A stretch of 64,000 bases of DNA from a plasmid, in the sequence record NZ_CP064874.1; one strand, written 5' to 3'. The notes under the pieces were generated by a model, which saw only the letters and a list, made by a program, of their open reading frames with translations, did no database searches and was not told the origin of the DNA. Below, in pieces: positions 751-33,885 of this stretch. The stretch's first letter is position 1. Each line of letters begins with the position of its first letter. Position numbers and translations under genes: made by a program.

Positions 751-751
751 A

Positions 752-2541: not shown

Positions 2542-2542
2542 T

Positions 2543-2575
2543 TTATGCGCAAGTCGGGTGTCTCACGAGACAGCG
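2543..2575. repeat. left terminal inverted repeat of the 31-kb insertion
   Basis: ttatgcgcaagtcgggtgtctcacgagacagcg aligns at roughly 70% with the reverse complement of 33848..33880 (shared TTATG.G.A.G.TCGG.T..GTGTCTCA..CGAC). Confidence 0.45.
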
Positions 2576-2890
2576 GAAGATCGGCCATCAACTCGGGTGG
2601 GCTGGGGGCTCACGATAGCGGCGGTAAGCCATCCGGCTTCTACGACAATTCGGGAGTAGCGCGTTCAGCAGCAGCTGCTGCGACCGCGCGTGCAGTTACG
2701 GCGGTTGCCAGCAGGTGACTCTTGGCCGCCCGATCGGGTTGCCACGAATTGTCTGCAGCCACCGTACCCAGCTCTTCCAACACAACTGCGAGGGCGGCCT
2801 TGACATCATCCTCGCCGATCGCGAGTGGCGCCTGCGCAAGCTGCGTGAGTTGCGTCGGGTTGAACACCTGTGCCCCGAGCGCTTTCGTCA

Positions 2891-3145
2891 CTAGGGCGTG
2901 TTGATCAAGAGGTTCAGGCTCAGGATCGGCGAGTCTCGATGGTGTGACGCGTCAGGAGATCTCGGATGAGGTGTGGGCTGTTCTGGAGCCGCTGATGCCG
3001 GTGCCGGTTGGCAGGTCGCGGCCGTGGACGGATCATCGTCTCGCGGTCGAGGGCATGGCCTGGAAGTACCGCACGGGGGCGCCCTGGCGGGATGTGCCGG
3101 AGCGGTTCGGGAAGTGGAACTCGATCTACAAGCGGTTCGCGCGCG
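2891..3145 (+). mobile_element. IS5-family (IS427/IS1031-like) fragment: left IR plus N-terminal part of OrfA
   Basis: IR CTAGGGCGTGTTGATCAAGAGG at 2891-2912. ORF 2944.. encodes MTRQEISDEVWAVLEPLMPVPVGRSRPWTDHRLAVEGMAWKYRTGAPWRDVPERFGKWNSIYKRFAR, a DUF4096-type OrfA N-terminus. Homology is lost after about 3140. Confidence 0.6.
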
Positions 3146-3163
3146 CCCTACAAGCTGTCCGAG

Positions 3164-3616
3164 GTGGAGAACCGAACTCTCAAGTCCGAGCACCCTCAGG
3201 AGAACCGATGCTCCTTCTGCGTCGGCCAGAAGAACTACACCTGGTACCCCGTCGAGGACATCACGGTCGTACGCCGCTGGACCGCGAGTAGCGTCTACTG
3301 GCCAGACCGCGGAGGTAGAGAATCGGGCGGCTGGTACTCATGGAGATGCCCCAGCCACCCCTTTGATGGCAAGCCCTCGCCGCGGGTACACGATGCCCCC
3401 GATCATCTTCGCCCGAAGTACACCGCGCGATGTCGCATTGTGGAGCTGGGGCGCGCCTGCGGCGAACCCGCAGTCGGCCGCTTCGATAGCGCGTGGCTTT
3501 GCGAACGTCATGCCAGGCCAGTCCTCCTCAGTCAGCGAGACGAGGGGCTGCTGCGAGATGACGACCTTCAGATCAGCGACCCGAACGAAGCGCCTGACGG
3601 CCCAGCCGAGAGATAG
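3164..3616 (+). CDS. hypothetical Cys-rich protein (possible fragment)
   Basis: Open frame with good GC3 (…CSFCVGQKNYTWYPVEDITVVRRW…WRCPSHPFDGKPSP…). It has no ATG; the only candidate start is a GTG at 3164. It lies immediately after the IS fragment breakpoint. Confidence 0.25.
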   Translation: MENRTLKSEHPQENRCSFCVGQKNYTWYPVEDITVVRRWTASSVYWPDRGGRESGGWYSWRCPSHPFDGKPSPRVHDAPDHLRPKYTARCRIVELGRACGEPAVGRFDSAWLCERHARPVLLSQRDEGLLRDDDLQISDPNEAPDGPAER

Positions 3617-3814
3617 AGGGGGCCCGGGGGTTCGCGGCGGCGGTGCCCCGACGGGAAAACCGCGTATCGGTTACAGGAAACGCAGGAACAGCACCACGCC
3701 CCGATCCGCACCAGGACAGGTTGTGCCAACAGCCCACCATCGTCGTGTCTGCTGACCCGGAAAGTTCGCGCGTTCACGCGGCCGTAACGCGGACGCAATC
3801 GTCCCGACGCGGAC

Positions 3815-4003
3815 GTGCGTAACTCTTACTGTGATCACAAATCACAAGAGCGGAGCACGTATGGAAGCGCAGCTGTCAACCTCGCCGCACCGTCCTGGTC
3901 GACCGTCGTGGCCGGGCTCGCCGTCTCGGCGGTCGCGTACCTCGCGCTCAGCATGCTGACCCGCACAGCCTCTCGCACCCCGGCTGTCACGACGGCCGCC
4001 TGA
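3815..4003 (+). CDS. possible small membrane protein
   Basis: Frame contains a hydrophobic stretch WSTVVAGLAVSAVAYLALSML and ends 35 bp before the amidase gene. The start codon is uncertain. Confidence 0.2.
   Translation: MRNSYCDHKSQERSTYGSAAVNLAAPSWSTVVAGLAVSAVAYLALSMLTRTASRTPAVTTAA
3830..3846. promoter_or_regulatory. palindromic motif TGTGATCACA(AATCACA) upstream of the small-ORF/amidase unit
   Basis: A 10-bp perfect palindrome followed by a third half-site, about 200 bp upstream of the amidase start. Confidence 0.25.
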
Positions 4004-4037
4004 ACCAGACGACCTCCCTCCCGAAAGGAATCCGCTG

Positions 4038-5492
4038 ATGCCCCAGAACCACAACGTCGAAGAGCTCACCATCGCTCGCTTCCACGAAGGGATACGCACG
4101 GGGCAGCTGACCTCGCGCGCGCTCACCCAGTGGTACCTCGACCGCATCGCGGCACACAACGTCGACGGGGCCGCGATCAACGCCGTGGTCACGGTCAATC
4201 CGTCGGCGCTCGCCGAGGCGGAGGCGCGGGACGCCGCGTTCTCCGCCTCGGGGCAGCTCACCGGCCCGCTCCACGGCGTCCCGATCCTGGTGAAGGATCA
4301 GGCCGAGACGGCGGGCATCGCCACGTCGTTCGGATCGGCCGCCTTCGCCGATTACATCCCCGAGGCCGACGCGCGGGTCGTCGCGCTGCTGCGCGCGGCC
4401 GGCGCGGTTATCCTCGCCAAGACGGCCATGTGCGACTTCGCGGCCGGCTGGTTCTCGTCGTCGTCGCGGACGGGCCACACGCGCAACGCGTACGACCCGG
4501 CGCGCGACTCGGGCGGGTCCAGCGCAGGCACCGGCGCGGGTGTCTCGGCCGACTTCGGCCTCGTGGGCGTGGGCGAAGACACCGGCGGCTCTATCCGCAT
4601 CCCCGCGTCGTTCAACAACATCTACGGTCTGCGGGTGACGACCGGCCTGATCAGCCGCACCGGGTTCTCGCCGCTCGTCCACTTCCAGGACACCCCCGGT
4701 CCGATGGCGCGCACGGTCGAGGACCTCGCGACGCTCCTCGAGGTGATGGTGGGGTACGACCCCGCCGACGAGTACACGGCGGTGGCCGCCACGGAGCCGT
4801 CGGTCGGCGGATACGCCGCGGCCGTCGTCGACGCGCCGCCCATGTCGCAGTGGTGTGTCGGGGTGCTCGAGACCGCGTTCGGCAGTGGGGGCGACGCCGA
4901 AGAGGTCAACCGGGTGGTGCGCGACGCGATCGCGGCGATGGCGGATGCGGGTGCGACGATCGTCGAGGGCCTCGAGATCGACGGCCTGCCGGAGTGGATC
5001 TCCGACACGTCGGTCTACAGGCAGTCGCGGAGCGACCTGAACCGCTTCCTCGGGTCACGGAAAGGCCCCGTCTCCTCTTTCGATGAGCTGAACGACCTCA
5101 TCCCCGCGATCGCAGCCGGGCCTGAACAGGTCGAGGGCGATGCCGAGGTGACACGCCTCCGCCTCAACCAGGAGCACTTCCGCCGCCTGCTGCGCACGCT
5201 CTTCGCCGACTCGGGTGCCGCCCTGATCGTCTATCCCACCGTGCAGGTGCCGGCGCCGACGCATGACGGGCTCCGCTCGGGCGAGTACACCGCCCTCACG
5301 TTCCCCACCAACACGGTCATCGCCTCGCAAGCGGGCTTCCCCGCCGTCTCGATCCCGGTCGGGTTCACCGAGAGCGGGCTCGCGGTCGGGCTCGAAGTGC
5401 TGGGCACGCCGTTCACCGAGCAGCGCCTGCTGCAGTTCGCGGCTGCCCTCGCCCCGCTCGTCGACGCGCGTCGGGCGCCGGTCCTTGGCTGA
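4038..5492 (+). CDS. amidase (amidase-signature family)
   Basis: 484 aa. Contains the GGSSAGTGAGVS(A) and GVGEDTGGSIRIPASFNNIYGLRVTTG signature motifs. Confidence 0.85.
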   Translation: MPQNHNVEELTIARFHEGIRTGQLTSRALTQWYLDRIAAHNVDGAAINAVVTVNPSALAEAEARDAAFSASGQLTGPLHGVPILVKDQAETAGIATSFGSAAFADYIPEADARVVALLRAAGAVILAKTAMCDFAAGWFSSSSRTGHTRNAYDPARDSGGSSAGTGAGVSADFGLVGVGEDTGGSIRIPASFNNIYGLRVTTGLISRTGFSPLVHFQDTPGPMARTVEDLATLLEVMVGYDPADEYTAVAATEPSVGGYAAAVVDAPPMSQWCVGVLETAFGSGGDAEEVNRVVRDAIAAMADAGATIVEGLEIDGLPEWISDTSVYRQSRSDLNRFLGSRKGPVSSFDELNDLIPAIAAGPEQVEGDAEVTRLRLNQEHFRRLLRTLFADSGAALIVYPTVQVPAPTHDGLRSGEYTALTFPTNTVIASQAGFPAVSIPVGFTESGLAVGLEVLGTPFTEQRLLQFAAALAPLVDARRAPVLG

Positions 5493-5544
5493 CGCGCGGC
5501 CGATGCAGGGGTCGGCGCCGCTCGCACGGCCCGCCCCGCGGAGG

Positions 5545-6282
5545 ATGGACATCAACGCCGATCTCGGCGAGAGCTTCGGCGCGTACCGGTATGGCAACGA
5601 TGACGAGCTGATGCCGCTCATCACGTCCGCCAACATCGCGTGCGGGTTTCACGCGGGCGACCCGGCGAGCATGCGCGAGGCAGTGCGGAGCGCGATCGAG
5701 CACGGGGTAGCGATCGGAGCGCACGTGGGCCTTCCCGACCGGCTCGGCTTCGGCCGACGCGAGATCGACATCAGCGTTGCAGACGCGTACGACTACACCC
5801 TGTACCAGTTGGCCGCGCTCGACGGGTTCGTACGGGCGGCCGGAGCTCGGATGCGCCACGTCAAGCCGCACGGCGCGCTCTACATGATGGCGTCGAAGAG
5901 CCCCGATCTTGCGGAGGGGATCAGTGCGGCCGTCCGCGACTTCGACCCCACGCTGGCGATGTACGTGCTGCCCGGTTCCCACGCCGAGCACGCCGCGGAG
6001 AGCGCCGGGCTTGCCGTACGGCGGGAGTTCTTTGCGGACCGCCCGTACGAGGGCAGCGACGTCGTCATGTTCGGGTGGACCTACGATCAACTCGGCGGTG
6101 AGCAGGGTGCTGCCTCCCGCGTCGCAGCGATGCTGGGCAACCGCGCCTTCGGATCCGTCGAGACGATCTGTGTGCACAGCGATACGGACGAAGCCCCGGA
6201 GCTTGTGCGAGCTGTCCGATCTGCTTTGCGTCACCGGCAGGTCGCGGTCGGGCTGTCCGCACCTCGAGCGGAGGGCGAGTAG
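5545..6282 (+). CDS. pxpA: LamB/YcsF family 5-oxoprolinase subunit A
   Basis: Starts MDINADLGESFGAYRYGNDDELMPLITSANIACGFHAGDP, the canonical LamB/YcsF N-terminus. The ORF-track entry 5263..6282 is an upstream extension that overlaps the amidase. Confidence 0.8.
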   Translation: MDINADLGESFGAYRYGNDDELMPLITSANIACGFHAGDPASMREAVRSAIEHGVAIGAHVGLPDRLGFGRREIDISVADAYDYTLYQLAALDGFVRAAGARMRHVKPHGALYMMASKSPDLAEGISAAVRDFDPTLAMYVLPGSHAEHAAESAGLAVRREFFADRPYEGSDVVMFGWTYDQLGGEQGAASRVAAMLGNRAFGSVETICVHSDTDEAPELVRAVRSALRHRQVAVGLSAPRAEGE

Positions 6283-6496
6283 GAGTAACCACAGCGCTCG
6301 ATCCGTCGTTCAGCCGCGTTCCTTTAGCCCACTGGCGCGCAAGAGGCCCGGAATTTCCACTGTCATCTCGCAGGACATCGGTGACACTTCTCGCGGTCTT
6401 GGTGGTAACACTTCGGCCGGTCGTATTGGTAAGTGACCCCTTCTGAGCCTGTTGATTCTCGTGTTCGTCTCGCCATCACGCAGTGGCCCGATAACG

Positions 6497-7954
6497 GGCT
6501 CTTCGGACATTCGGTGGGGGTCATGGGGTGAGTCCGCCGGCGGCGAGGAGCATGCGGAGCCGGTAGTTGTCGCGGTTGCGGAAGCCGCGGGCGAGGCGGC
6601 GGTGCAGCTCGATGATCCCGTTCACGGCCTCAGTGCCGCCGTTCGATGATCGTCCGGTCGTGAAGTAGGCCAGGAACGCGGCTCGCCAGCGGCGGAGGGT
6701 GCGGCCGAGGCGGGCGATCTCGGGGATCGGGCAGGTGTGGAATGTGTCGACGACCTTCTCCGCGATCTGGCGGCCCTCGGCGAGGTCCTTCTGGTGGTAG
6801 GCGGAACGCAGTTGCTGGGCGCACTGCCATGCGACGAACACCTCGTCGTGCGCGGGGTCGGCCTCGATCGCTGCCGCGAGCCTGGTCCGCTGCTTCTCGG
6901 TGAGGTTCTCGGCGCCGGCGCGGAGGATGGTCTGGATCCCGTAGAGCGGGTCGCCGGTCCGACCGCGATGCCCGAGGGTGTCCTGCTGGACGCGGCGGCG
7001 GACCTCGTCGACGGCGGCGGTGCCGAGCTTGACGACGTGGAATGCGTCCAGCACGGCCGTGGCGTCTTCGAGCTGGTCGTCGATCGCGGTCTTGTAGCCG
7101 GCGAACGGGTCAAGAGCCGCGACTTTCACGTTCTGCCGGAACGCTTCGCCGCGTTCGGCGAGCCAGGACGCGTAGGCCTTCCCGGAGCGGCCCGGCACCA
7201 GGTCGAGCAGCCTGGCCCGCGTCTTCCCGTCCGCGTCGCGGCTCAGATCGACCATCCCGGTAAGCTCCTTCGGACCGCGCTTGCGGGGGTCGACGTGATG
7301 CCAGATGTGCTCATCGACACCGAGCGTGGTGACGTTCTCGAATCGGGACTCGTCGGCCGCGAGCCGCTCCAACTCAGGCTCGACAGCGCGCCACACCGTC
7401 TTCCACGACGTGCCGAGCTGACGGGCGATACCGTGCACGGTGGCGTGCTCGCGGCGCAGCTGCCCGATCGCCCAGCCGACGGCGCGCGTGGTGATCGACC
7501 CGCGCCGGGCGACCAGACCCGGGAGCTGCTCCACGAACGTCCGCCGCGCGCATCCCACCTCGTCGCACCGCCAGACCCGCTGCCGCCATACGATCCGCAC
7601 CCGCGTCGTCGCGGGCACATCATGAAGCACCCGTCGACGGCGTCCGCGGCCGGTCGCGACGACCCCACACGAGGGGCAGCCGGTCGGCGCCGCTGGCGTC
7701 GAGACCGTCACCACCAGCAGCCCGTCGCGACGGTCGACGCGCTCGACATGGACATCGGGAAGACCCAGCAGAACGTCGCAGCGGGAACACGGATCAGCGG
7801 CAGAGCGCGCGGAAGCGCACCCCGAAGTAGGGTGAAGCACGTCGAGGTCCTCGTGAAGATCAGACAGTTAGCGCTACTGATCCTCGGGGACCTCGACCCC
7901 TACCCGCCGAACCCCACCCGGCAAGCCTCACCCCCACCGAATGTCCGAAGAGCC
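6497..7954 (-). mobile_element. ISL3-family insertion sequence (copy 1), 1458 bp, 8-bp TSD CGATAACG
   Basis: Terminal IRs GGCTCTTCGGACATTCGGTGGGGGT (6497..) and its reverse complement (..7954). Flanking direct repeats cgataacg at 6489-6496 and 7955-7962. Confidence 0.85.
6521..7840 (-). CDS. ISL3-family transposase
   Basis: 439 aa with an N-terminal zinc finger (CPSCG) and a typical ISL3 core (…LGVDEHIWHH…). The start is a GTG. Confidence 0.85.
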   Translation of the reverse strand: MLHPTSGCASARSAADPCSRCDVLLGLPDVHVERVDRRDGLLVVTVSTPAAPTGCPSCGVVATGRGRRRRVLHDVPATTRVRIVWRQRVWRCDEVGCARRTFVEQLPGLVARRGSITTRAVGWAIGQLRREHATVHGIARQLGTSWKTVWRAVEPELERLAADESRFENVTTLGVDEHIWHHVDPRKRGPKELTGMVDLSRDADGKTRARLLDLVPGRSGKAYASWLAERGEAFRQNVKVAALDPFAGYKTAIDDQLEDATAVLDAFHVVKLGTAAVDEVRRRVQQDTLGHRGRTGDPLYGIQTILRAGAENLTEKQRTRLAAAIEADPAHDEVFVAWQCAQQLRSAYHQKDLAEGRQIAEKVVDTFHTCPIPEIARLGRTLRRWRAAFLAYFTTGRSSNGGTEAVNGIIELHRRLARGFRNRDNYRLRMLLAAGGLTP

Positions 7955-8259
7955 CGATAACGCGCCGCGCGGGGCGGTGAGCACGTTCTGTGTCGAGCAC
8001 GGGATCTCCCGCAAGACGTTCTACGCGATCCGTAAGCGCGTCGCCGAGGAAGGGCCTGCCGCGGCGCTCGAGCCGAGGTCGCGTCGTCCGAAGTCGAGCC
8101 CGTCGAAGCTGAGCGACGAGGTCAAACGGCAGGCAATCGGTGTGCCGGCGGCGTTGGAGCAGTCCGGGCTGGACCACGGTCCGATCAGCGTGCACGACAG
8201 GATGCGCACGCTGAGGATGGACCCTGTGCCGTCGACGGCGTCGCTGGCGCGGATCTCCT

Positions 8260-8329
8260 CTAGGCCGTGTTGATCATGAGGGTTCACTCACCCACCGAGG
8301 AGCGGAACCTCTTGATCAACACGCCCTAG
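8260..8329. mobile_element. 70-bp MITE-like element made of IS5-family terminal inverted repeats
   Basis: CTAGGCCGTGTTGATCATGAGG (8260-8281), a 26-bp spacer, then CCTCTTGATCAACACGCCCTAG (8308-8329). The second IR is the exact reverse complement of the IR at 2891-2912. Confidence 0.55.
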
Positions 8330-9835
8330 GAAGCTGCTGACGTAAAAGCGTGTGTTCGTTCGAGTAGAGGCATCGGCGGCAACTGCTTCGGTCAAGAGAG
8401 CCGAATCGACTCTACGCTGAACGGTTGCTACCCAAAGGTATACGTCCAGACTCAGAGATGGGTTGAAGACCGCTGCATAGTCTGCCTCGTTGTTGAGCAA
8501 TGTCGACGGGCGTGCACGCGCATCATCAGGTCGGCTCAGTCCAATCGCCATCACGGCCTGCCCGAGTGTGGCGATGCTGATGATCTTGTCGGCTGGCTTT
8601 CCGGCGTTCTTGTAGAAGTTCTTTCGGCGGTCGTAGTACCAGCCCTTCGCGGCGAAGTGCGACTCGATCTGGCGGTGGAGATCCTCGGTCGCATGCAGCG
8701 ACGCGTCTGGAACCTTCGTTTGACTGTTGGTCGCTCGGATCACGTCGTCACGAGTGGCCTCGTCGAGGGTCTTGATTACTCTGACCTGGACAGATCGCCG
8801 CTTGTGGCGCTCAAGGTCGACGCCGGTCGCGGTAAGGACATCGTGGATGGCATGCGAGGTCTGCATGCCATTGACGATCTGCACACCCGACAGAGTGAAG
8901 GTCTTCTCCCCGCCGATATTCACCCCTGAACACAGGATCGTTACCCCGTTGTTTAGCCACCAGAAGTCTCGCTCATCGTCGGCTTCGAGAGTTGCCTGCA
9001 TCTGCCTGTTCACGGTGACTGCGCCCTGGAAGTCGCGAACGTTCCAATCGAACAAATGACCGCGGAGTGCCCCCGACTCGTCAGAAAGGAATCGGAAGTA
9101 CTCGGGTAGCGAGACGAGACCGGCATAGGAGTCGCCTTCCGAGATGTAGTCCCGGAACCGGAGCTGGAGGTCATACTCAGGCGTGGCGCTCGCCATCGCC
9201 CACAGCTCCCTCGCGCCCACGAGGCGCGCCTCGACATCTGACCCAATGACCAGCGAGGAGAGCGCCGCGCGGGTGTCGGCGACCTTCTGTGTAACACCCG
9301 CTGACGCGCTCGTGGTGTCGCCGCGTGACACATATGCGAACGTGATCGAGATGCGTGGCGACCGGATACTGAGCAACGTCCACGCCCTGGTAAACAAGCG
9401 AACACGCGCGATGACATCGGCCGAATAGATCCCAGCCAGCTGCTCGTCGGTGAAGTTCAGGTCGAGCAGCTTCTTCGTGCTCGCGTTCACCTTGTCGAAT
9501 GCGTCCTCGCCGAATCCCTCCGAGCGCTTCGCCTGGATGAGCCACAGGGAAATCTCGGCGCCCTTTCTCACTTCGCTCGGCTTGAAGCCGTCCTCAAACA
9601 CGTCAGAGTCCTCGCTGAGGAGGCGGCCGTCGAGGAAGGTGTAGACGGCGTCAAGCCCGCCGTCCAGTCCTCCGCCGATCCTGCCCGCTTCGATCTCCTC
9701 GTCGCTGAGGTTCTGCCCGCTAAGGACCGTCGCAGCAGCGAACACTTCGAACGCAACGTCATCGGGCAGGGGCGTATCTCGACTGTCCTGCGCCGCCTTG
9801 AGGAACTGATCGACAAGGACAACCTCATTGCTCAT
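8288..9835 (-). CDS. AIPR-family protein (abortive-infection phage-resistance-like); last 14 codons and the stop are supplied by the MITE
   Basis: 515 aa. Carries AIPR hallmarks (…DFWWLNNGVTILCSGV…IVNGMQTSHAIHDVL…). The C-terminal residues LGRVDQEVPLLGG* are encoded by MITE sequence. Confidence 0.7.
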   Translation of the reverse strand: MSNEVVLVDQFLKAAQDSRDTPLPDDVAFEVFAAATVLSGQNLSDEEIEAGRIGGGLDGGLDAVYTFLDGRLLSEDSDVFEDGFKPSEVRKGAEISLWLIQAKRSEGFGEDAFDKVNASTKKLLDLNFTDEQLAGIYSADVIARVRLFTRAWTLLSIRSPRISITFAYVSRGDTTSASAGVTQKVADTRAALSSLVIGSDVEARLVGARELWAMASATPEYDLQLRFRDYISEGDSYAGLVSLPEYFRFLSDESGALRGHLFDWNVRDFQGAVTVNRQMQATLEADDERDFWWLNNGVTILCSGVNIGGEKTFTLSGVQIVNGMQTSHAIHDVLTATGVDLERHKRRSVQVRVIKTLDEATRDDVIRATNSQTKVPDASLHATEDLHRQIESHFAAKGWYYDRRKNFYKNAGKPADKIISIATLGQAVMAIGLSRPDDARARPSTLLNNEADYAAVFNPSLSLDVYLWVATVQRRVDSALLTEAVAADASTRTNTRFYVSSFLGRVDQEVPLLGG

Positions 9836-9895
9836 CGAAGATTCCCGCTTCCTGGTCGCGCTCGACCATCGACACGTTCAGCCAACCTAGCTGTT

Positions 9896-10858: not shown

Positions 10859-10864
10859 CGACCG

Positions 10865-14251: not shown

Positions 14252-14252
14252 G

Positions 14253-20412: not shown

Positions 20413-20486
20413 GACTCTCGTTCACTCCCTCGGTTGGCAAGTTGATCAGGATACGTTGGGCCGGCGACATTGCGGCCGATCGGGGG

Positions 20487-20669: not shown

Positions 20670-20717
20670 TCACGCCCCTATGCAGATTGAGCCGGAAGTT
20701 TCCGGGTATGACCGAGC

Positions 20718-21945: not shown

Positions 21946-21976
21946 GCGACCTCCTGACATCGAGCCGGCCAAGCTA

Positions 21977-22359: not shown

Positions 22360-22432
22360 TACAGTGCAGAATGCCATACGGATTAGGGCGTGTCTGACAA
22401 AGGTTGAGGGGATCGGTTGAGACGCTGGAGCG

Positions 22433-22828: not shown

Positions 22829-22910
22829 TCATGCTATCGGCCGCTCCCGGGGCGGCCTGTCGACGAAGATCCACCAGCTCGTTGACGGGAAGGGGCTGCC
22901 GCTGGTCACG

Positions 22911-23327: not shown

Positions 23328-23439
23328 CCGGCTGGCCCTGAGTCCGATGAGACGTCGCACAACCGAAGGGATACGAGGCGGTCGCCCTGTCATGGTTCAC
23401 TCGGCGGCGCGCCGGGCGCCGCCTGGCGGAGCCGCCCTC

Positions 23440-25995: not shown

Positions 25996-26129
25996 GCGAG
26001 AGGCCTTTCATGAGGAGACGAGACGAGGGCGCACCTACGAGCCACCACCGAGGATAGCCGACATTTGTCGGAAATCGGAGCGGCTGGGTTCTGCGTGGCG
26101 TCTCCCCATCCCGCTGGCACAATCGACGC

Positions 26130-26696
26130 ATGGATGCCCGCGTCGTCCGCACCCGACGGTCCCTGCAGGAGTCGCTGTTCGCCTTGGCTCGCGAGCGGCC
26201 GCTCGAGGAACTCACCGTCGCCGACATCGTGCAGCGGGCAGGAGTGAATCGGAGCAGCTTCTATCAGCATTACGCCGACAAGGACACCCTTCTCGCCGAT
26301 GCCATCGACACGGCGGTCGAGCAGGCAGGGACCTTCCTGCCTGAAACGATCACCGCACCGGACGGCCCGCAACGCGCGCTCCTCGCCTACCTGCGACACA
26401 TCGACGAGCATGTGGCGGTCTATCAGCGCGTGCTCGGACGCCACGGCTCGGCCGCGGTGGCGTTCAGGTTGCGTGATCGCATCGAGGCCGTTGCCCGCGA
26501 GGGCCTCGGGCGAATGGGCACGCACGCATTCGAAGGGATCCCCCTCGACGTCGTCAGTGCCGGCATCGCCGGCTCAGCACTCGGCGTCATCGAGGCGTGG
26601 CTCGCGCGCGACCCCCGACCGCGAGTCGAGACCGCTGCGGACTGGGTATGGCGTGTGCTCGTCGGCGTCGGCGATGCAATGGAGGAGGGGCGCTGA
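26130..26696 (+). CDS. TetR/AcrR-family transcriptional regulator
   Basis: N-terminal HTH …LTVADIVQRAGVNRSSFYQHYADKDTLL…. Diverges from the MMPL gene. Confidence 0.85.
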   Translation: MDARVVRTRRSLQESLFALARERPLEELTVADIVQRAGVNRSSFYQHYADKDTLLADAIDTAVEQAGTFLPETITAPDGPQRALLAYLRHIDEHVAVYQRVLGRHGSAAVAFRLRDRIEAVAREGLGRMGTHAFEGIPLDVVSAGIAGSALGVIEAWLARDPRPRVETAADWVWRVLVGVGDAMEEGR

Positions 26697-26719
26697 CGGT
26701 ACGCCCCGTCCACAGCCGG

Positions 26720-27136
26720 CTAGGGTGCGTCTGACAGCGTTCTGGTCCAGGCGATGGCGGCGTGGATGAGGACGGCGGCGCGGTAGGTGATCGCGTGTTT
26801 GTCGTAGCGGGTCGCGAGGCCTCGCCATTGCTTGGCGTGGCAGAACCGGCGTTCGATCACGTTGCGGTTCTTGTAGTCGTCGGTGTCGAGCCCGACAGGC
26901 CTTCCGCCTCGTGAACCGCGACGCTTCCGGTGCCCCTGCTGGTCGCGGGGCTCGGGGATCACGGCTTTGATCCCACGCCCCCGCAAGCGTGACCGGATCG
27001 CGCGGGACGAGTACGCCTTGTCGCCCCGGACCGCGTCCGGGCGGGTGCGAGGGCGACCGACGGGGCGACCCACGCGAAGCTGATCCAGCAAGGGCAGCAG
27101 CATCGGCGAATCACCGGCCTGTCCGGGGGTGATCAC
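26720..27136 (-). CDS. IS427-group transposase OrfB (copy B)
   Basis: Identical 138-aa product to 22911..23327. Confidence 0.75.
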   Translation of the reverse strand: MITPGQAGDSPMLLPLLDQLRVGRPVGRPRTRPDAVRGDKAYSSRAIRSRLRGRGIKAVIPEPRDQQGHRKRRGSRGGRPVGLDTDDYKNRNVIERRFCHAKQWRGLATRYDKHAITYRAAVLIHAAIAWTRTLSDAP

Positions 27137-27664
27137 CGTGACCAGCGGCAGCCCCTTCCCGTCAACGAGCTGGTGGATCTTCGTCGACAGGCCGCCCCGG
27201 GAGCGGCCGATAGCATGATCAGGCGGCTCGACGCCCGGATTCGTGTAATTCGATACAGCCCCCTGTGGGGCGACTCGTGTTCGTCGCGTGCTGATGCGCC
27301 CGCGTGATCGTCGAATCCACCGATACCGACCAGTCCACCAGCCCCTCGGCGTCGGCCTGCGCGATCAGCGACTGCACGATCGAGTCCCAGGTGCCTTCGG
27401 TCGCGAGCCTGCGATGCCAGGTCCACACGGTCTGCCACGGGCCGAACACTGCAGGAAGATCGCGCCACGCGATCCCGCACCGATACCGGTAAATGATCCC
27501 TTCCAGCATCGTCCGCGCGTCCGAGAACTTCCGACCCGGGCGACCCGTCGGCCTCGGCAACATCCCATCGATCAGAGACCACTGAGCATCCGTAAGCAAC
27601 CGAAACCGCGTCACCGCTCCAGCGTCTCAACCGATCCCCTCAACCTTTGTCAGACACGCCCTAG
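26721..27664 (-). mobile_element. IS427-group insertion sequence, copy B (identical to copy A, inverted)
   Basis: Encodes the same OrfA and OrfB proteins (27219..27614 and 26720..27136, minus strand). It has the same termini as copy A. Confidence 0.85.
27219..27614 (-). CDS. IS427-group transposase OrfA (copy B)
   Basis: Identical 131-aa product to 22433..22828. Confidence 0.8.
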   Translation of the reverse strand: MTRFRLLTDAQWSLIDGMLPRPTGRPGRKFSDARTMLEGIIYRYRCGIAWRDLPAVFGPWQTVWTWHRRLATEGTWDSIVQSLIAQADAEGLVDWSVSVDSTITRAHQHATNTSRPTGGCIELHESGRRAA

Positions 27665-27709
27665 GCCTCATGCGGTAGTGGGTGGTGCCTCGACTCTCCG
27701 GTGTTGGAA

Positions 27710-28021
27710 TCAGCGGATCGTGAGATCAGGAGTATCGGCTGGCAGGAGGTCGCCAATCTCCACGTCGAGCACCTGCGCCACGGCCAACAGCGTCCTGACT
27801 GACGGGTTCGCGGGAGTGCCTGGCCGAGACTCGCCCTTCTCGAGCTTCTGATACGTGTAGCGACTGAGGTTCGCCTCGTACGCGACACGATCTTGGCTGT
27901 AGCCGACGCGCGCCCGCTCGCGCTGAATGTTCTGACCAAGCTCGCGGGCGTATTGTTCCCAGGCGGTCGGTGGAGTCGCGTGGGAGGGCACGCACCCAGG
28001 CTTCCGATTAGGCCTTCGCAA
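27710..28021 (-). CDS. XRE-family HTH transcriptional regulator
   Basis: …LGQNIQRERARVGYSQDRVAYEANLSRYTYQKLEKGESRP…TLLAVAQVLDVEIGDLL. The start may be internal. Confidence 0.55.
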   Translation of the reverse strand: MRRPNRKPGCVPSHATPPTAWEQYARELGQNIQRERARVGYSQDRVAYEANLSRYTYQKLEKGESRPGTPANPSVRTLLAVAQVLDVEIGDLLPADTPDLTIR

Positions 28022-28080
28022 GTAGGCCTAATCGGTATGGCAATCTCGGCCTGCAGCGGGAGTCCCGGCGCGTGAAGCGA

Positions 28081-28500
28081 TCAGCTGCCGCGAGGCGTGG
28101 GTGTGGGGGAACGCTTCATCGGAGTGACGTTGCGCGTTGGGTCTTCACCGCGGAGCAGCTGATTCTCGACGTGCAGCTCGGCCACCGCGGTCGCTGCGAT
28201 CGTGAGTTGCGCCTCGAGTTCGCGAATTCGCGCGCGGAGGCCCGCGATCTGTGTCCCACGGTCCGCGAGTGATCGGTTGAGCGCTTCGAGTTCACGATCG
28301 CGCGGCTGGGTTCCGCCTGCCCGCAATGCCCACTCTTCGAGCACGGACTTCGCGCGGTTCATCGTCGCGCGGCTGACACCGGCTTCGCGGTAGAGGTTCT
28401 CCTTGATGAGACGGCCGTCGGTGCGCACTGCTGTGCCAGCGAAGAGCCGCTCCATCGCATCGCGGAGCTTGCGTTCCGACGTGCTGATGGGTTCAGGCAT
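28081..28500 (-). CDS. hypothetical coiled-coil protein, fourth gene of the recombinase-trio operon
   Basis: Start MPEPISTSERKLRDAMERLF at 28500 overlaps the 701-aa recombinase stop by 8 bp. Contains a coiled-coil LRARIRELEAQLTIAATAVAELHVENQLL. Confidence 0.5.
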   Translation of the reverse strand: MPEPISTSERKLRDAMERLFAGTAVRTDGRLIKENLYREAGVSRATMNRAKSVLEEWALRAGGTQPRDRELEALNRSLADRGTQIAGLRARIRELEAQLTIAATAVAELHVENQLLRGEDPTRNVTPMKRSPTPTPRGS

Positions 28501-30598
28501 CCGTGAATCTCCTCGTGATCTTGCGTACGTCTTTGAGTTCGGCCTCGAGCTGCTCGCGATTGTGCGACGCCATGCTGCGGTCGCGGAGCTTTGCCACCAG
28601 ATCGCGCTCTTCGGCGACCCACACGGGCGCGTGTTCATCGGTCACGACCGAATTGCCGCAGGTGGTCGGCTTGCACCGGTTGGGGATCACACCGCTTGCG
28701 GCAGCCTCGGCAGACAGACCTTTGAGGCAGGCCGCCTGTTCCGGATCGCCGAGGCAGTGGTTGATCGTTCCCCACCGCAGCGTGCTGAAGCGGTCACGCA
28801 GCAGAGTGCGCAGGGTCCGCTCATCTCCGACCTTCACTGCGATGTCGACCTCGGCGGTGGCGTTCACGAGCTCGTCTCGGAAGCGTTGTGCGCCTGCGCC
28901 GGCGAGCTTGATGTCGTCGACAGAGTCGGACGACCACATGCCGACGAGGCGTGAGGCGACGGCCTCCTGCAGTTCGTGCTCGAACTCGGCGGCCCACTCG
29001 GGCGTTTCGCTCGCATACCCAGACGTTGTGCCGTTCGCTACGGCCCGACGCGCTGCGTGCTTCAGCTGGATACCGAGCGCGACTTCGCCATCCGGTTGTT
29101 GGGCAGTGATGACGGCCATCGTGCGTCGAAACATGTGCGGGGCGAGATGGAAGTGTGGGATCGGCTCGAAGCCGGCCTCTCGCCCAATGTCGTTGAGCTG
29201 GGGTATGAGCTTCTTCAACTCGTCGTGCCGGTCGAAGGTCACCAGTTGGCCTTCGCTCTTCTGGCTGCGTCGACTCGATCCGAAGACGGCTTCGCCCACC
29301 GCGAGCCGCTCGGCGACGCTGATCGCCTGTGCTACCGGCTCGATGATCCACCAGTTGCGGCGATGCGTTCCGCGCTTGCCTTTCCGTAACTGGGATGCGA
29401 CCGCGGGCGCACCGTAGAAGGTCGTGAGCGCTCCCTTCTTGATGCTCAGCAGCTCGGAGTCGCGCATCATCGAAAGTGCCGCACAGAAGACGTAGCACGC
29501 GTTGCGAAGAACCTTGAGTTGAACTCGAATCGTGGCCGGATCGAAGCCATCGATCCAAGGGCCGGTGGAGCCGTCGGCCTTCCGCACGTCCGTGATCTTC
29601 GAGCGCAGGCCACCGCGCGCAGTGGAGATCTCGCCGGCGTCGATGGCTCTGGCGATTCGTTCGCGTCGGCGCCGCACCTCACTCCGTGATGTCTCGGCGA
29701 ATAGGTGTTTGCTGTGGCCATCGGAAACGAGCAGCGATAGGAGAGTCCAGTGGATCTCACCTTCCGTGAAGCGGCCGGCGGACATGCGATGGAGGGGAAC
29801 AGTCGACCCGGCGGCGACGAGCCAGGTCTCGATTGCGTCGTCGGGATCGCGGACAGCACGGCGTTCCTCGGGTGGACGCTCGAGAGTCGACCATTTGTCG
29901 GCGGCCGCGAAGATGTCGTGCGAGAAGACATCGATGTACTGCCAGCAGGCGCGAAGTAGCGGCCACCAGACGTGAGGTGGGATGACGGGCGTGCTCAGCT
30001 CCTCGCTGAACTTCTGCCCGCTCAGCGCGATCGTGGTCGCCTCACCCCACGGGCGGAACGGGATCCCTCCACCTGTGATGACCCGGTCGTACTGGTGGAG
30101 CGCACGGACGGACTCAATCGCTGCGCGCGTGGAGGACGGGGGAATGCTCGGCTTGATGTCACCAAGGAAGCAGTCGAGATCCGCTTGGTGGAGCTCATTC
30201 AGGGGGACACTGTCGAGGTGCTCGGCATGCCAGGACGCGAATCTCTTGAGTCCGTCGAGTCTTGTGCGGATCGTCTTGGTCTGCGCGGGCGCGGCGGTCA
30301 GGTAGAGGCTCTGATCACGAAGGACCTGGTGTCCCGGATTGAGCATGGCCATCGCGATCTCGCGGGCGCGAAGATTCCAGTCTCCGGTGAACGCGCCGAA
30401 GAGCAGCACCGCTGAGTGGCGCCCCGCCGCGGGGTTCCAACCGAGTGCGCGCAAGTCCCAGCGGGAGTCGTCACCGAACGAAGAGACGGGGTACGACTCC
30501 TCTCGATAGTGATGAGGGAGCACAGATTGCTGGGCGCGCCAGTAGGTGCTGGCGGGGGCGAGTCTCGAGGCATGGCGTGCGGCAGAATCAAGACTCAC
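28493..30598 (-). CDS. tyrosine recombinase, third of the trio (RitC-like; compare Tn554 TnpB-like large recombinases)
   Basis: 701 aa. Putative catalytic boxes …HFHLAPHMFRRTMAV… and …LKHAARRAVANGTTSGYAS…. Overlaps the upstream gene by 4 bp. Confidence 0.65.
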   Translation of the reverse strand: MSLDSAARHASRLAPASTYWRAQQSVLPHHYREESYPVSSFGDDSRWDLRALGWNPAAGRHSAVLLFGAFTGDWNLRAREIAMAMLNPGHQVLRDQSLYLTAAPAQTKTIRTRLDGLKRFASWHAEHLDSVPLNELHQADLDCFLGDIKPSIPPSSTRAAIESVRALHQYDRVITGGGIPFRPWGEATTIALSGQKFSEELSTPVIPPHVWWPLLRACWQYIDVFSHDIFAAADKWSTLERPPEERRAVRDPDDAIETWLVAAGSTVPLHRMSAGRFTEGEIHWTLLSLLVSDGHSKHLFAETSRSEVRRRRERIARAIDAGEISTARGGLRSKITDVRKADGSTGPWIDGFDPATIRVQLKVLRNACYVFCAALSMMRDSELLSIKKGALTTFYGAPAVASQLRKGKRGTHRRNWWIIEPVAQAISVAERLAVGEAVFGSSRRSQKSEGQLVTFDRHDELKKLIPQLNDIGREAGFEPIPHFHLAPHMFRRTMAVITAQQPDGEVALGIQLKHAARRAVANGTTSGYASETPEWAAEFEHELQEAVASRLVGMWSSDSVDDIKLAGAGAQRFRDELVNATAEVDIAVKVGDERTLRTLLRDRFSTLRWGTINHCLGDPEQAACLKGLSAEAAASGVIPNRCKPTTCGNSVVTDEHAPVWVAEERDLVAKLRDRSMASHNREQLEAELKDVRKITRRFTDA

Positions 30599-32415
30599 AG
30601 GTGGACTCCTCGCTGAGCGATGGGGACGTGGACGACTGCGTCGAGATCGTGGGAGCGTTGGGCTCGCTCTCGCTCCGCCGGAGTGAACTCATCCAGGATG
30701 CGCTCGATGTTCCTGAGCTGCTGTCCATGGGTTGCCGCGAACTGGGCGGGCTCCATCTCGTTCTGGTGTCCGCGAAGGATCTCGCGATAGGCGAGGATTC
30801 GAGGCAGGTGGTCGGTGAACACGATCGCGTTGGGGCACGCGAAGCACATCGATGGCCGATGCTCGCATAGACGCCCGCTTCGGCCGTAGGGAGAGTCGTA
30901 CGGTGAGCTGCAGTGCGCGACGTTCATGGCTCGATCCGTCGACGTCGACTCCAACTCGGCTACCGCAGCCACCGCAAGCTCGGGTCGCTCACCAGCCCGG
31001 ATCGACGCAGCACTGGCCTTCACGAACACTGGGCCGCTGACACGGTCGAAGACCTGCTGTTGAGCTGCGTTGACCGCTGCGCCGGCCAGCACGTGAACTG
31101 TCGTCGTCTGCGCGTAGTGGCGCTGGTAGACGGCGATGCTGTGGTCATCGCCTGCCGCAATGTCGGCGCTTCGGAGCACCGCCGCTCGCACACTCTTGAC
31201 TGTCTTTCGCAGTCGGCGCGCGTCGTGAGGTCTGGAGATGGCAGGTGTGATCGACGTCAGAAGGGACGAGAACGAATTCGAGAACGAATCTGGGCGTACC
31301 TCAAGGCGTCTTGACGAAGTTCGGAACACGCTCAAGAACAGGGCGTCATGCACCGGCGACGGGCTGGCTTCCCTCAGTTCCCTCGCCCTGGAAGTCGCAG
31401 CGAGAACCCGCTCGATGAGATCGCCCGACTTCCATCCGCTGCCGCTGGCAGATCCGGACGTGGCGCAGCGTACGATCCGGCTGCGGTGGGCGCGGGCCTT
31501 GTACAGACGGACGCGTAGCGTGTCGGGGTCTGAGATGTCGATGTCGCTCAGCGAGACGTTCGACCACTCCTCGGGAGCGGCGCCCGTCTCGAGCTGCAGC
31601 AGCGTCCTGAACGCGACCAGGTCGTCGCTCGAGGGATAGAGATATGACAGCAATCGCCTGACAACCCGGCCGGAGCCTCCATACGTCGTCGCGTGTTCGG
31701 TTTCGAACGCCTCGTGCAGGTCGTTGAGGACGCCTCGGTCGCACGCCAGCATGGCCTCGCGCTCCACCATGATGCCGTCCGTCCGTCCCAGGTGGTGGAT
31801 GCCCCAGAGGATATCTTCCGCGCGTGACCACCCGTCACCGCGAGGATCGCGCCCGACCTCGAGCAGTTGATGTCCGATCGAGAGTCGCTCCTCCAGCTCT
31901 CGGATGCGGCTGCGGCAGGTATCACGAATCGCAAGACGCTCGGCATTCGAGAACTCGTCGAGAGGCGTCGCGCCGCCGCCCTGATGCAAGACCTGCCCGT
32001 CGGCCCACCGCTCGACGTCGAGGCCGACGTCTCGACCGTTCGCGATGTGGACTCGGACCAACCTTCGAAGCTGTCGACCGTACTTGTACGGCATGGTGCT
32101 CTCGGCGGGGTACGCGGCAGCCAGCCCCGACTCCCACTCATGGATCCCGTCGACCACGACGCGATCGGCCCATGCGAGGCTTGCGGTTCGCGGGCACGCA
32201 TTGGTGAGACTGCGAAGGAGACTGATGACCGCAACACGGTACTGATATGCCGTGCCGTCAGCCAGCGCGAACGTGCGTCTCATGTCGACGAGTGCGTCCG
32301 AGAGCTCAGCGGCCAGGATCGGGTGCGCGAAGTCCAGCGGTCTGATCGTGCCGTCGTTGCTCCCGCCCGCGATCGTGAACGTCATCCGACGAGGGGAGAG
32401 GTCGTGGCCGGTCAT
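30595..32415 (-). CDS. tyrosine recombinase, second of the trio (RitB-like)
   Basis: 606 aa. …RPHDARRLRKTVKS… and …HSIAVYQRHYAQ…. Overlaps both neighbours by 4 bp. Confidence 0.65.
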   Translation of the reverse strand: MTGHDLSPRRMTFTIAGGSNDGTIRPLDFAHPILAAELSDALVDMRRTFALADGTAYQYRVAVISLLRSLTNACPRTASLAWADRVVVDGIHEWESGLAAAYPAESTMPYKYGRQLRRLVRVHIANGRDVGLDVERWADGQVLHQGGGATPLDEFSNAERLAIRDTCRSRIRELEERLSIGHQLLEVGRDPRGDGWSRAEDILWGIHHLGRTDGIMVEREAMLACDRGVLNDLHEAFETEHATTYGGSGRVVRRLLSYLYPSSDDLVAFRTLLQLETGAAPEEWSNVSLSDIDISDPDTLRVRLYKARAHRSRIVRCATSGSASGSGWKSGDLIERVLAATSRARELREASPSPVHDALFLSVFRTSSRRLEVRPDSFSNSFSSLLTSITPAISRPHDARRLRKTVKSVRAAVLRSADIAAGDDHSIAVYQRHYAQTTTVHVLAGAAVNAAQQQVFDRVSGPVFVKASAASIRAGERPELAVAAVAELESTSTDRAMNVAHCSSPYDSPYGRSGRLCEHRPSMCFACPNAIVFTDHLPRILAYREILRGHQNEMEPAQFAATHGQQLRNIERILDEFTPAERERAQRSHDLDAVVHVPIAQRGVHL

Positions 32416-33824
32416 TCTGCCTTCCGATCCGCGAGGACGGCGTCGGCGAAGGTCGCGGCCTCGTCGCTCCAGCTCTCGAACACGTCCTGGATGAGTGCGT
32501 CTGTGTCCTCGATGTATCGCAGGTAGATCATGGTCGTGGCAGGGTTCGAATGGCCAAGAAGTCGCTGCACAGTCAGTCTCGGGTTGATCGCTATGTGCTC
32601 GGACAGAGTGGCCGGTCCGAGGTTGCCAGCGCGGCGGTCGGCCTCACGGGCGAGCGCGACATCGGTGAGTGCCTTGAGGAGCACGACGGCGAAGGTGTGA
32701 CGCAGATCATGCGGTGTGATTTGCGCTCGGCGCCCTCCCATCTCAACTTCAGCGAGCTCAAGGGTGCGACGACTCGCCGCGGCAAACGTGGCATGCCAGG
32801 CTCGTCGACTTATCGGTAGCCCCCCTCGGCCCAGGAACAATCCCAGCGCCTCGAGCCCGTGATCGCGTTCGATCACCGCGATTCGGCGCAGGTGCGGCGG
32901 GAGGAGATGTAGTGGCCATCTCGACCGGCGCCCGTCGAGCCGCCCACGGATGACGCCGGCAGAGACGTCGAGCTCGTCGACGACAAACAGATCGGCTCGA
33001 CGCGACCATAGTGAGTTGGCAGATGCGCGAACGACGGCACGGCGCTCCGTTCGGCGATAGAGGTCGACGGCGCGCAGTGCGGTGAGCGGAACATGGACAC
33101 GGCGCCGCTTCTGGTACTTGGCGCATGCTTCGAGGAGTACGGAGGCACCCGTGCCGGCGGGTGCGGGCAGCTCGGCATCCAGCAACGTCGAAAACTCGCC
33201 GAGTCGCATCCCTGTCGTCACGGCGACCTGCGCGCCAGCCTGGGAACGCAAGCTCGTTCTTCCCCGCCAACTCGCATCCAGCTCGCCGAGTGCGGTTTGC
33301 CCACCGAGGCCGATGTCGCGGAATGCGCGCCACTGCGCCTGACTCAACGGGCGTATGTCTGGCTCACTCCGCCACGGGTTGCGAAGCGCTGACGATCTCC
33401 CGATGGTGATCCACGGCTCACGACGAACCTGCCCGGTCTGCACGAGAAGCTGGTAGATCCCGTGAACGACGACGACGTCGCGTCGCCAGGTTGCCGGCGA
33501 GACTGCGCGATCCCCACCGCCGAGCCGCCACTCTCGGTACGCGACGATATCGTCGGCCGACGCGTGCACCACGTCAGTCCCACGATCTTCGAGGAATCCA
33601 GCGAAGCGAAGCGCGTCGTACGCGTAGTTGCGCACTGTCGACGTTGACGTCGAACCCGCAATGACCCGGAAGTAGGTCTGCCAGGGCTCAACCGGTCGCC
33701 ATCGATCGTCGAGCAGCACGGGCAGTCCGTCGGGAAGCGAACGTGAGCTCGCGTAGACGTCGCGCGTGTCTTCGTCGACGTCAGTGGGCACGGCGAGTTG
33801 GTGGTTGATGAAACGCAGATGCAT
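32412..33824 (-). CDS. tyrosine recombinase/integrase, first of the trio (RitA-like)
   Basis: Clear integrase C-terminus: …ITPHDLRHTFAVVLL… and …LLGHSNPATTMIYLRYI…. The start is taken at MHLRFINHQ (33824), which is preceded by GGAGAG and lies inside the terminal IR. The ORF-track start at 33899 would lie outside the insertion. Confidence 0.8.
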   Translation of the reverse strand: MHLRFINHQLAVPTDVDEDTRDVYASSRSLPDGLPVLLDDRWRPVEPWQTYFRVIAGSTSTSTVRNYAYDALRFAGFLEDRGTDVVHASADDIVAYREWRLGGGDRAVSPATWRRDVVVVHGIYQLLVQTGQVRREPWITIGRSSALRNPWRSEPDIRPLSQAQWRAFRDIGLGGQTALGELDASWRGRTSLRSQAGAQVAVTTGMRLGEFSTLLDAELPAPAGTGASVLLEACAKYQKRRRVHVPLTALRAVDLYRRTERRAVVRASANSLWSRRADLFVVDELDVSAGVIRGRLDGRRSRWPLHLLPPHLRRIAVIERDHGLEALGLFLGRGGLPISRRAWHATFAAASRRTLELAEVEMGGRRAQITPHDLRHTFAVVLLKALTDVALAREADRRAGNLGPATLSEHIAINPRLTVQRLLGHSNPATTMIYLRYIEDTDALIQDVFESWSDEAATFADAVLADRKAE

Positions 33825-33847
33825 CGCTCTCCGAGGTTGTTCGGGTG

Positions 33848-33880
33848 GTCGATTGAGACACTGACCGAACGTACACATAA
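33848..33880. repeat. right terminal inverted repeat of the 31-kb insertion
   Basis: See 2543..2575. It overlaps the ritA-like start region. Confidence 0.45.
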
Positions 33881-33885
33881 CGGCG

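Follow-up and report, generated by a model that had tools for sequence, protein, structure and literature searches.

A stretch of 64,000 nucleotides from the plasmid sequence record NZ_CP064874.1 was analysed (this whole stretch is referred to below as the window), in which a gene for an MmeI-family Type IIG restriction-modification enzyme is split in frame, within its methyltransferase domain, by an insertion of 31,344 bp with short inverted repeats at its ends and a cluster of tyrosine-recombinase genes at its right end. On the plus strand the open reading frame (ORF) of the host gene runs over 1411..2541 and ends ...MRFLDPA, the frame then picks up at 33886 with CGCGNFLVV and stops at 35592. 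Pfam searches with the N-terminal part gave MmeI_N and MmeI_hel, and those with the C-terminal part gave MmeI_TRD, MmeI_C and a match to MmeI_Mtase that begins at profile position 28. The host gene, the junctions and the termini of the insertion lie as follows:

1411..2536, plus strand: 5' part of the host gene (MmeI_N, MmeI_hel and the first 27 positions of the methyltransferase domain; ends ...FLD-P)
2537..2542: 6-bp footprint CAGCGT at the distal junction, foreign to the host site of the window
2543..2572, plus strand: distal terminus, consisting of TTATGCGCAAGTCGGGTGTCTCA and, after it, the conserved palindrome TGTCTCACGAGACA
33854..33880, minus strand: recombinase-proximal terminus, TTATGTGTACGTTCGGTCAGTGTCTCA
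33881..33886: host 6-mer CGGCGT at the recombinase-proximal junction, the same as in the empty allele
33887..35592, plus strand: 3' part of the host gene (from motif I, (C)GCGNFLVV; MmeI_Mtase, TRD and C domains)

When its two parts are rejoined, the host protein has unbroken relatives at up to 98% amino-acid identity. The best of them (P0121; loci L076 and L077) provides an empty allele, which aligns with positions 4..2542 and 33881..41008 of the window with an overlap of 6 bp and has none of the 31-kb insertion. The insertion in the window is thus confirmed as real, and its boundaries as right to within the 6-mers.

An earlier note, made from the letters of this DNA, had described two ends that begin with TTATG and share GTGTCTCA, and this description stands: within the 64 kb, TTATG-N10-19-GTGTCTCA has exactly two matches, 2543..2565 (plus strand) and 33854..33880 (minus strand), where none is expected (100 shuffles). 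The terminal repeats, which had been given a length of ~33 bp, are real, although the likeness between the two ends spans only ~23–27 nt and includes a 4-nt difference in length. The first recombinase gene had also been thought to start inside the terminal repeat, whereas its ATG (33824) sits 56 nt inside the end of the element and ~30 nt past the conserved repeat. The same termini are kept in relatives in which the second protein of the recombinase operon (gene 2, see below) is just ~35% identical. The distal terminus additionally carries the palindrome TGTCTCA(C/A)GAGACA (window 2559..2572; also present at the distal ends of two small relatives, L019 and L040), which the proximal terminus does not have and which could be a dimer-binding site.

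Copies of the same element were found in other assemblies. The 606-amino-acid (aa) protein of gene 2 is encoded at 100% identity on nine other contigs, and the other DNA copies are 99.0–99.9% identical to the window, with identity starting precisely at TTATG at both ends; copies at this level of identity occupy at least six different host genes, and two contigs end exactly at the distal end of the element. In all of these other copies position 2895 is joined straight to 8326, and 22387 straight to 27662, which gives an ancestral element of 20.6 kb (2543..2895 + 8326..22387 + 27662..33880). This 20.6-kb unit is present as a whole on one contig (SRR26266918_32; sampled as L001 and L006), inside a Type ISP restriction-modification gene, where the segments 2896..8325 and 22388..27661 are missing; halves of it are present in several further samples. 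The idea of one mobile unit bounded by two inverted repeats is therefore borne out by copies of it in other genes, and the association of these termini with the recombinase module recurs in other assemblies and in relatives that share the same ends. Two contigs of metagenome-assembled genomes, L019 (12,881 bp) and L040 (8,798 bp), start one base before TTATG and finish at ...GCGCATAA, so that each is a whole small element; such stand-alone contigs suggest that the elements were circular or had several contexts in the samples concerned.

The two segments without counterpart in the other copies are transposons in their own right:

2896..8325: nested insertion 1, 5,430 bp, bounded by perfect inverted repeats of 25 bp (GGCGTGTTGATCAAGAGGTTC...) and showing a duplication of CTAG; genes for an amidase (4038..5492), a LamB/YcsF protein (5263..6282) and an ISL3-family transposase (6521..7840)
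22388..27661: nested insertion 2, 5,274 bp, a composite transposon in which genes for a TetR regulator (26130..26696) and an MMPL transporter (23440..25995) are flanked by two identical 947-bp copies, in inverted orientation, of an IS5-family insertion sequence (DDE_Tnp_1)

The right end of insertion 1 is formed by a palindromic unit of ~64 bp (8262..8325) that resembles a miniature inverted-repeat transposable element, and its sole transposase gene, of the ISL3 family, has no obvious fit to the IS5-like ends.

These two segments, which together amount to 10.7 kb and are later independent transposons with their own inverted repeats and CTAG duplications, are what speaks for a reading of the whole 31 kb as a pile of unrelated stepwise insertions, in which the recombinase cluster would be merely a small element at the edge. 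The remaining 20.6 kb, however, comprising both termini, the recombinase module and the defence genes of the cargo (Hma and AbiU), recurs as one colinear, 99.9% identical block in a different gene and on a single contig, and the empty allele has none of the insertion. As an account of the whole insertion we regard such a pile as exceedingly improbable: it holds for the two nested transposons only and is refuted, as judged from these alignments, for the 20.6-kb core. The earlier note had posed mobilisation of the entire cargo and later piling-in as alternatives, and each is partly true, since ~14 kb of cargo (Hma, AbiU and small genes) moves as a unit and the further 10.7 kb was added later. 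By the same comparison, the copy in the window can be said to have gained the two unrelated transposons, and a frameshift in hmaB, after the ancestral element was formed.

At the right end of the element lies a module of four genes, with overlaps of 4, 4 and 8 bp between neighbours, and a regulator gene is kept beside it:

32412..33824, minus strand: gene 1, a 470-aa IntA-like tyrosine recombinase with Phage_integrase and SAM_1 domains
30595..32415, minus strand: gene 2, a 606-aa Tfp-like protein of the tyrosine-recombinase fold with a C-terminal cluster of Cys residues
28493..30598, minus strand: gene 3, a 701-aa large IntB-like tyrosine recombinase
28081..28500, minus strand: gene 4, a 139-aa Srap/TnpC/GinD-like accessory protein with a helix-turn-helix (HTH)-like N-terminus and a coiled coil
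27710..27991, minus strand: XRE-family HTH regulator, kept beside the recombination module

Reference genomes yielded 58 loci, and all of the complete ones have genes 1 to 4 in this order, which agrees with the proposal that the recombinase cluster at the right end drives the element. Catalytic residues were read from alignments of 26 sequences. Gene 1 has the invariant residues R207, H372, R375, H425 and Y434 (R..HxxR..H..Y), and gene 3 has R379, H488, R491, H514 and Y528; on the strength of these residues, genes 1 and 3 are taken to be the two catalytic recombinases. In gene 2 the position of the first Arg is occupied by A or T in all 26 family members, and H/Y397, R400, H425 and Y434 are retained. 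No Pfam or NCBIfam match was obtained for this protein, and sequence and profile searches of PDB chains gave noise only, as they also did for gene 3; the top 23 PDB matches of its AlphaFold model (pLDDT, the predicted local distance difference test, 79.7) are all Cre or XerH, at a weak level (E ~0.01, probability up to 0.99). None of genes 2 to 4 belongs to a named NCBIfam family. Genes 2 and 4 are presumably accessory or target-selection factors. The trio of recombinases that had been noticed at this end consequently consists of two catalytic proteins and one protein that has the recombinase fold, with neither the first catalytic Arg nor a Pfam match.

Three adjacent recombinase-like genes with 4-bp overlaps, in an element with terminal inverted repeats, had suggested an element of the RIT (recombinase-in-trio) type with an unusually large captured cargo. 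RIT elements have been described as ~3.5 kb long, with three recombinases of 315–410 aa, all with RH-Y, and no fourth gene (PMC3414803, PMC10214605). The proteins found here have 470, 606 and 701 aa, against the 315–410 aa given for RIT elements (PMC10214605); the first catalytic Arg is missing from gene 2 in all family members and Pfam gives no integrase match for this protein, while all three Rit families have RH-Y (PMC3414803); the conserved fourth gene is always there; and, compared with ~3.5 kb without cargo, the base element has 20.6 kb and its smallest complete relatives, with cargo, have 8.8 and 12.9 kb. [quoted passage not shown] With protein sizes, catalytic content of gene 2, gene number and element length all at variance with the RIT description, that assignment has to be given up as highly improbable.

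The two junctions of the element differ in a way that can be followed in two host genes. In the orientation of the host gene, the empty allele of the window reads GATC CGGCGT GCGGC, the left junction GATC CAGCGT TTATG... and the right junction ...CATAA CGGCGT GCGGC. The GCG/CGT shared by the junctions, which had been considered compatible with a 3–4 bp duplication, thus belongs to two 6-mers, CAGCGT and CGGCGT, of which CGGCGT alone is the host's. At the Type ISP insertion (L001/L006) the host sequence is GACC-CCTTCA-CTGG; CCTTCA is retained on the recombinase-proximal side, and on the distal side there is CAGCGT, a 6-mer of the Pro-Ala-Cys type that is foreign to the Type ISP gene. Every distal 6-mer seen (CAGCGT, CGGCGT, CGGCCT and CTGCGT) fits C-N-G-C-N-T, and the proximal 6-mers match the codons of each host. 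These junctions indicate that no target duplication is made, that the host 6-mer stays on the recombinase-proximal side and that a 6-mer from an earlier site sits on the distal side.

A mechanism that would produce this pattern can be proposed. The element would circularise, and CATAA-N6-TTATG would become the core site, a classical core with two inverted arms, the predicted circle junction being ...GCGCATAA-N6-TTATGTGTAC. The circle would then recombine with a 6-bp spacer in the target, for which homology between the spacers would not be needed, and the expected outcome is that the 6-mer of the target lies beside the recombinase-proximal end and that of the previous site beside the distal end, with no duplication. 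A candidate promoter across the circle junction (with TTGCGC as −35 on the distal side and TACGTT as −10 on the proximal side) was considered and dropped, as the −10-like hexamer is not kept in the Mycobacterium relatives when these are compared by eye.

The same junctions bear on a further possibility, namely that the insertion is an ordinary integrative island (phage-like, resembling an integrative and conjugative element (ICE) or an integrative and mobilizable element, or a strict GInt), inserted by conservative recombination at short att repeats, with the inverted repeats being incidental. Its architecture fits the description of GInts (PMC5385486), which also carry defence systems (PMC10121019), and the two 6-mers of the window are identical at five of six positions. 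Those of L001/L006, in contrast, differ at five of six (CCTTCA and CAGCGT), yet the element there is 99.9% identical to other copies, and the terminal inverted repeats are kept down to ~35% protein identity. In addition, the protein without the first Arg is second in the operon, while GinC is third, and there is no detectable similarity to the P. stutzeri GinA/B/C fragments. An island of this kind is considered unlikely.

Among the relatives, those with TTATG termini form a clade found in Microbacterium, Janibacter, Nesterenkonia, Mycobacterium/Mycolicibacterium, Skermania, Leucobacter and several metagenome contigs. In this clade the recombinase-proximal junctions abut DNA coding for x-G-x-G-x-F in 24 of 26 distinct cases, always in one codon phase and one orientation, the two exceptions being L055, a Streptomyces locus, and L036, where a terminus is duplicated and the inner copy is the deviating one. 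The insertion point is DPx|xGxGxF, in motif I, which binds S-adenosylmethionine; the variants of this motif seen at the junctions include ACGSGNFL, ACGTAGFLV, FTGTGTF, ACGSGHFLLGA and GSGLGTFL, and the distal flanks that were sequenced finish in (F/V)(L/V)(D/E)P. The split genes score as MmeI_Mtase, N6_Mtase (HsdM-like), Eco57I or Type ISP (Type_ISP_C). Judged by these flanking codons, the target is the DNA for motif I, (F/L/V)(L/V)(D/E)P-x | x-G-x-G-x-F, as it occurs in the gamma-class N6-adenine methyltransferases of restriction-modification systems, and insertion therefore splits and inactivates these enzymes. The literature that was searched contains no description of the actinobacterial lineage or of motif-I targeting, which is not proof of novelty.

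Two diverged Microbacterium relatives (L020 and L023; 59–75% gene-2 identity) sit in the orthologue of the host gene of the window. In L023 flanks and element alike are 82–87% identical to the window, and this locus may be an old shared insertion and not an independent event. Locus L036, of Mycobacterium barrassiae, has two copies of the proximal terminus, at 8365 and 8490, 125 bp apart, the outer one of which abuts motif I of a Type ISP gene; the doubled terminus may be the remnant of a tandem or repeated insertion. The HmaB protein carried by the element itself (L006 3931..6606) has at residues 111–125 a motif I, VLDPFCGGGST, that is similar to the target of the element.

The flanks of the window (35600..64000 and 1..1400) have the backbone of a conjugative plasmid or ICE, with a TrwC relaxase-helicase (58786..63036), an ArdC-like anti-restriction protein (38698..39678), a Mom-like protein (39679..40767) and insertion sequences with a Mutator-family transposase (50551..51825) and an rve-type transposase (52119..53462). 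FtsK/SpoIIIE and ParB-like genes adjoin the empty allele, and a Microbacterium plasmid bears a related copy of the element beside an Eco57I-type gene. From these three settings it follows that the target genes are often located on transmissible DNA.

A second clade, from Streptomyces, has termini of the form (G)TTAG...TGTCTCA and other targets. Six of its loci (L044, L045, L047, L048, L061 and L063) are inserted in the middle of the domain in a gene for a T2SSE/TadA-like secretion ATPase, at ~8300–8320 in most of them and at 3266 in L045. All six insertions directly follow ...RLETRPANQEGxG, with the TTAG of the element providing the stop codon. Insertions of other Streptomyces subgroups follow ...EVDW(A/E)QLR or ...LDLTG-like peptides; T2SSE is the sole target in this clade confirmed by Pfam.

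Four adjacent homologous genes are also present on plasmids, namely Klebsiella pVA172-90 (397/599/645/149 aa), Rhodococcus pDK1 (472/630/684/131 aa) and a Mycobacterium lentiflavum plasmid (433/608/837/131 aa), and on Phaeobacter pP24_d three module genes are annotated. Most genes of these plasmid modules (L072, L074, L078 and L079) are annotated as 'hypothetical protein'. In BLASTP searches against the Klebsiella plasmid module, genes 1 to 4 gave E = 3e-19, 3e-25, 3e-23 and 8e-6, respectively; genes 1 to 3 also match the Phaeobacter plasmid module, and gene 3 by itself also has matches on Agrobacterium and Sphingobium plasmids. The protein identifiers of the Klebsiella module are missing from the published supplementary lists of SE and GInt, and the module is not labelled as either; none in Alphaproteobacteria is reported by the published SE and GInt surveys.

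The closest parallels to the element are provided by SE (PMC10214605, PMC9345347), which have their core genes at one end in the order intA-tfp-intB-srap (IntA and IntB being catalytic recombinases, Tfp a recombinase-fold protein without the full catalytic set and Srap a small coiled-coil protein), inverted repeats at their termini that are short and imperfect (the SE motifs C and C') and site- and orientation-specific insertion inside genes without duplication, the host 6-mer being at the intA-proximal junction and the donor 6-mer at the distal one; they are non-conjugative and located on plasmids or ICEs. All of this is shared with the element, and the published description of SE gives four core genes, imperfect inverted repeats of 13–19 bp and a footprint of 6 bp in which the attB 6-mer is found beside intA (PMC10214605). 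The terminal sequences themselves are unrelated to SE motif C. SE have been reported from Gammaproteobacteria only, whereas the lineage described here is found in Actinomycetota; gene 2 lacks just the first Arg and retains HxxR, H and Y, in contrast to the published description of Tfp, in which the RHRY motif is absent; and the target, methyltransferase motif I, is different. With the proteins of the published SE on pAQU1 as references, hhalign aligned gene 4 with Srap at 92% probability (E = 7e-7), the one convincing match in an otherwise marginal sequence similarity.

GInts of the Tn6571 family (PMC5385486) resemble the element in having three integrase-like genes and a small gene, followed by 2.5–70 kb of cargo and a short non-coding far end, as well as a high specificity for target sites within genes or at gene ends, a cargo that often includes restriction-modification or defence systems, and one protein of the three without the first catalytic Arg. 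That protein is the third (GinC) in GInts and the second in the element, whose third protein has the invariant R379. GInts have imperfect direct repeats of 10–17 nt and no common terminal feature, in contrast to the conserved inverted repeats of the element and its 6-mers, which differ at up to five of six positions; no GInt has been reported from Actinobacteria.

Tn554 and the Tn554-related transposons of actinobacteria (Van Houdt et al. 2012, PMC3414803), the latter found in Mycobacterium, Rhodococcus, Streptomyces and Micrococcus, combine one ordinary recombinase, one abnormally long recombinase (611–828 aa) and a TnpC-like protein, as the element does. Like the element, Tn554 makes no duplication, carries over 6 bp from the donor and inserts in a site- and orientation-specific manner (PMC10214605). 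By description, the Tn554 type is set apart by having two recombinases, whereas the element has an extra conserved gene of ~600 aa between them, and by its target, which is att554 in radC and not methyltransferase motif I. As for the target, Tn1806-family ICEs of streptococci (PMC7563491, PMC13006639) integrate inside hsdM, a Type I methyltransferase gene, and are therefore a precedent for a restriction-modification methylase gene as a target; in contrast with the element they are conjugative, use a triplet of serine integrases and are directed at one gene type, not at a motif common to Type I, IIG and ISP.

We conclude that positions 2543..33880 of the window very probably constitute a recently active, site- and orientation-specific tyrosine-recombinase transposon of the SE/GInt/Tn554 kind, with the right-end four-gene operon as its module and motif I as its target. 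Several points weigh against this conclusion and have to be set beside it. The 6-mers of the window differ by one base and, taken alone, could be a mutated duplication; for this reason the footprint argument rests on the L001/L006 pair together with the empty allele. Both ends of the element lie on one contiguous sequence in two cases only (the window and L001/L006), other ends having been paired by sample. The circular intermediate, the strand bias and the choice between a copy-out and a cut-out route are steps that we infer, as is the role of each module protein; the boundaries, the module with its catalytic residues, the spread over several sites, the pattern of 6-mers and the target motif are observed directly. 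The element works like those of the SE and GInt families, and its membership in either is unproven at the sequence level: hhalign gave 19% (E = 1e-3) for gene 3 against IntB and 2.6%, essentially nothing, for gene 2 against Tfp, and BLASTP and hhalign searches against the GinA/B/C fragments of P. stutzeri DSM 4166, which are partial sequences, gave nothing significant. The element is best described as a new actinobacterial lineage of SE/GInt/Tn554-type tyrosine-recombinase transposons, made distinctive by motif-I homing and by a defence cargo of its own.

The ancestral cargo, all of it on the minus strand, is arranged in the window as follows:

2640..2895, minus strand: abiU 3' fragment (AIPR), severed by insertion 1
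8326..9835, minus strand: abiU 5' part (AIPR domain)
9896..10858, minus strand: cargo gene for a 320-aa protein, with identical copies in 18 contigs
10865..14251, minus strand: hmaC (Swt1-like HEPN and DUF499 AAA+ ATPase)
14253..16927, minus strand: hmaB (DUF1156 adenine methyltransferase)
16924..20397, minus strand: hmaA (SNF2/DEAD helicase and NOV_C nuclease-like domain)
20487..22387, minus strand: small backbone genes, comprising a mad1-like HTH_17 gene (20487..20669), a 273-aa gene (20718..21539), a 137-aa gene (21532..21945) and a 138-aa gene with its 5' end cut by insertion 2

In PADLOC, matches were obtained for the three proteins of an Hma (helicase-methylase-ATPase) defence system, HmaA (E = 0), HmaB (DUF1156 adenine methylase, 3e-208), HmaC (4e-267), AbiU (2.5e-174, a figure that applies to the intact 586-aa allele) and a mad1-like HTH protein. 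An exact-protein look-up with the AbiU ORF of the window gave no match, because the gene is truncated there. The hmaB gene of the window is frameshifted into ORFs of 529 and 372 aa by an indel of 1 nt, as seen by comparison with the allele found elsewhere, which is intact and codes for 891 aa; with abiU split by a nested transposon as well, the defence genes carried by this copy are in decay. In Microbacterium sp. HA-8 (L014; NZ_CP162025.1, from 16351) the module is 99% identical to that of the window and the cargo differs after ~1.6 kb, including a different helicase with 28% identity to HmaA; a constant module with a different cargo implies that cargo is exchanged between elements. The HA-8 genome has a second element (L016; 64% gene-2 identity), inside another MmeI-type gene.

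These findings extend to Actinomycetota (Mycobacterium, Streptomyces, Rhodococcus and Microbacterium) the SE/GInt/Tn554 class, which is poorly understood and for which transposition has been reproduced experimentally with few members, and the presence of 99.0–99.9% identical copies in different genes provides natural support for the 6-bp donor-footprint mechanism. The target being the DNA for a protein motif in several restriction-modification classes and not a single locus, many landing sites are available to the element on genomes and plasmids. For annotation, TTATG-N-GTGTCTCA termini together with a ~600-aa protein without a Pfam family offer a handle on such islands, and split MmeI, HsdM and Type ISP genes in actinobacteria should be taken for insertion scars left by this family and not as assembly errors or unexplained pseudogenes.

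Mobility in this lineage is tied to the defence arms race, in that a resident restriction enzyme is inactivated while Hma and AbiU are delivered. It is possible, and we propose it tentatively, that the lineage evolved to home on motif I of Type I, Type IIG/IIL and Type ISP methyltransferases, knocking out the resident restriction and installing Hma, itself a methylation-based defence, and AbiU in its place, so that defence is displaced by defence and a non-conjugative element rides between cells. Under this proposal the knockout would do the cell no harm, since in these enzyme types methylation and restriction rely on one polypeptide or complex, and the ride between cells would come from the target itself, conjugative plasmids and ICEs being frequent carriers of such methylase genes, as in the window. 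In sister clades the homing appears to be directed at different conserved catalytic motifs, for instance in a T2SSE/TadA-like ATPase gene.

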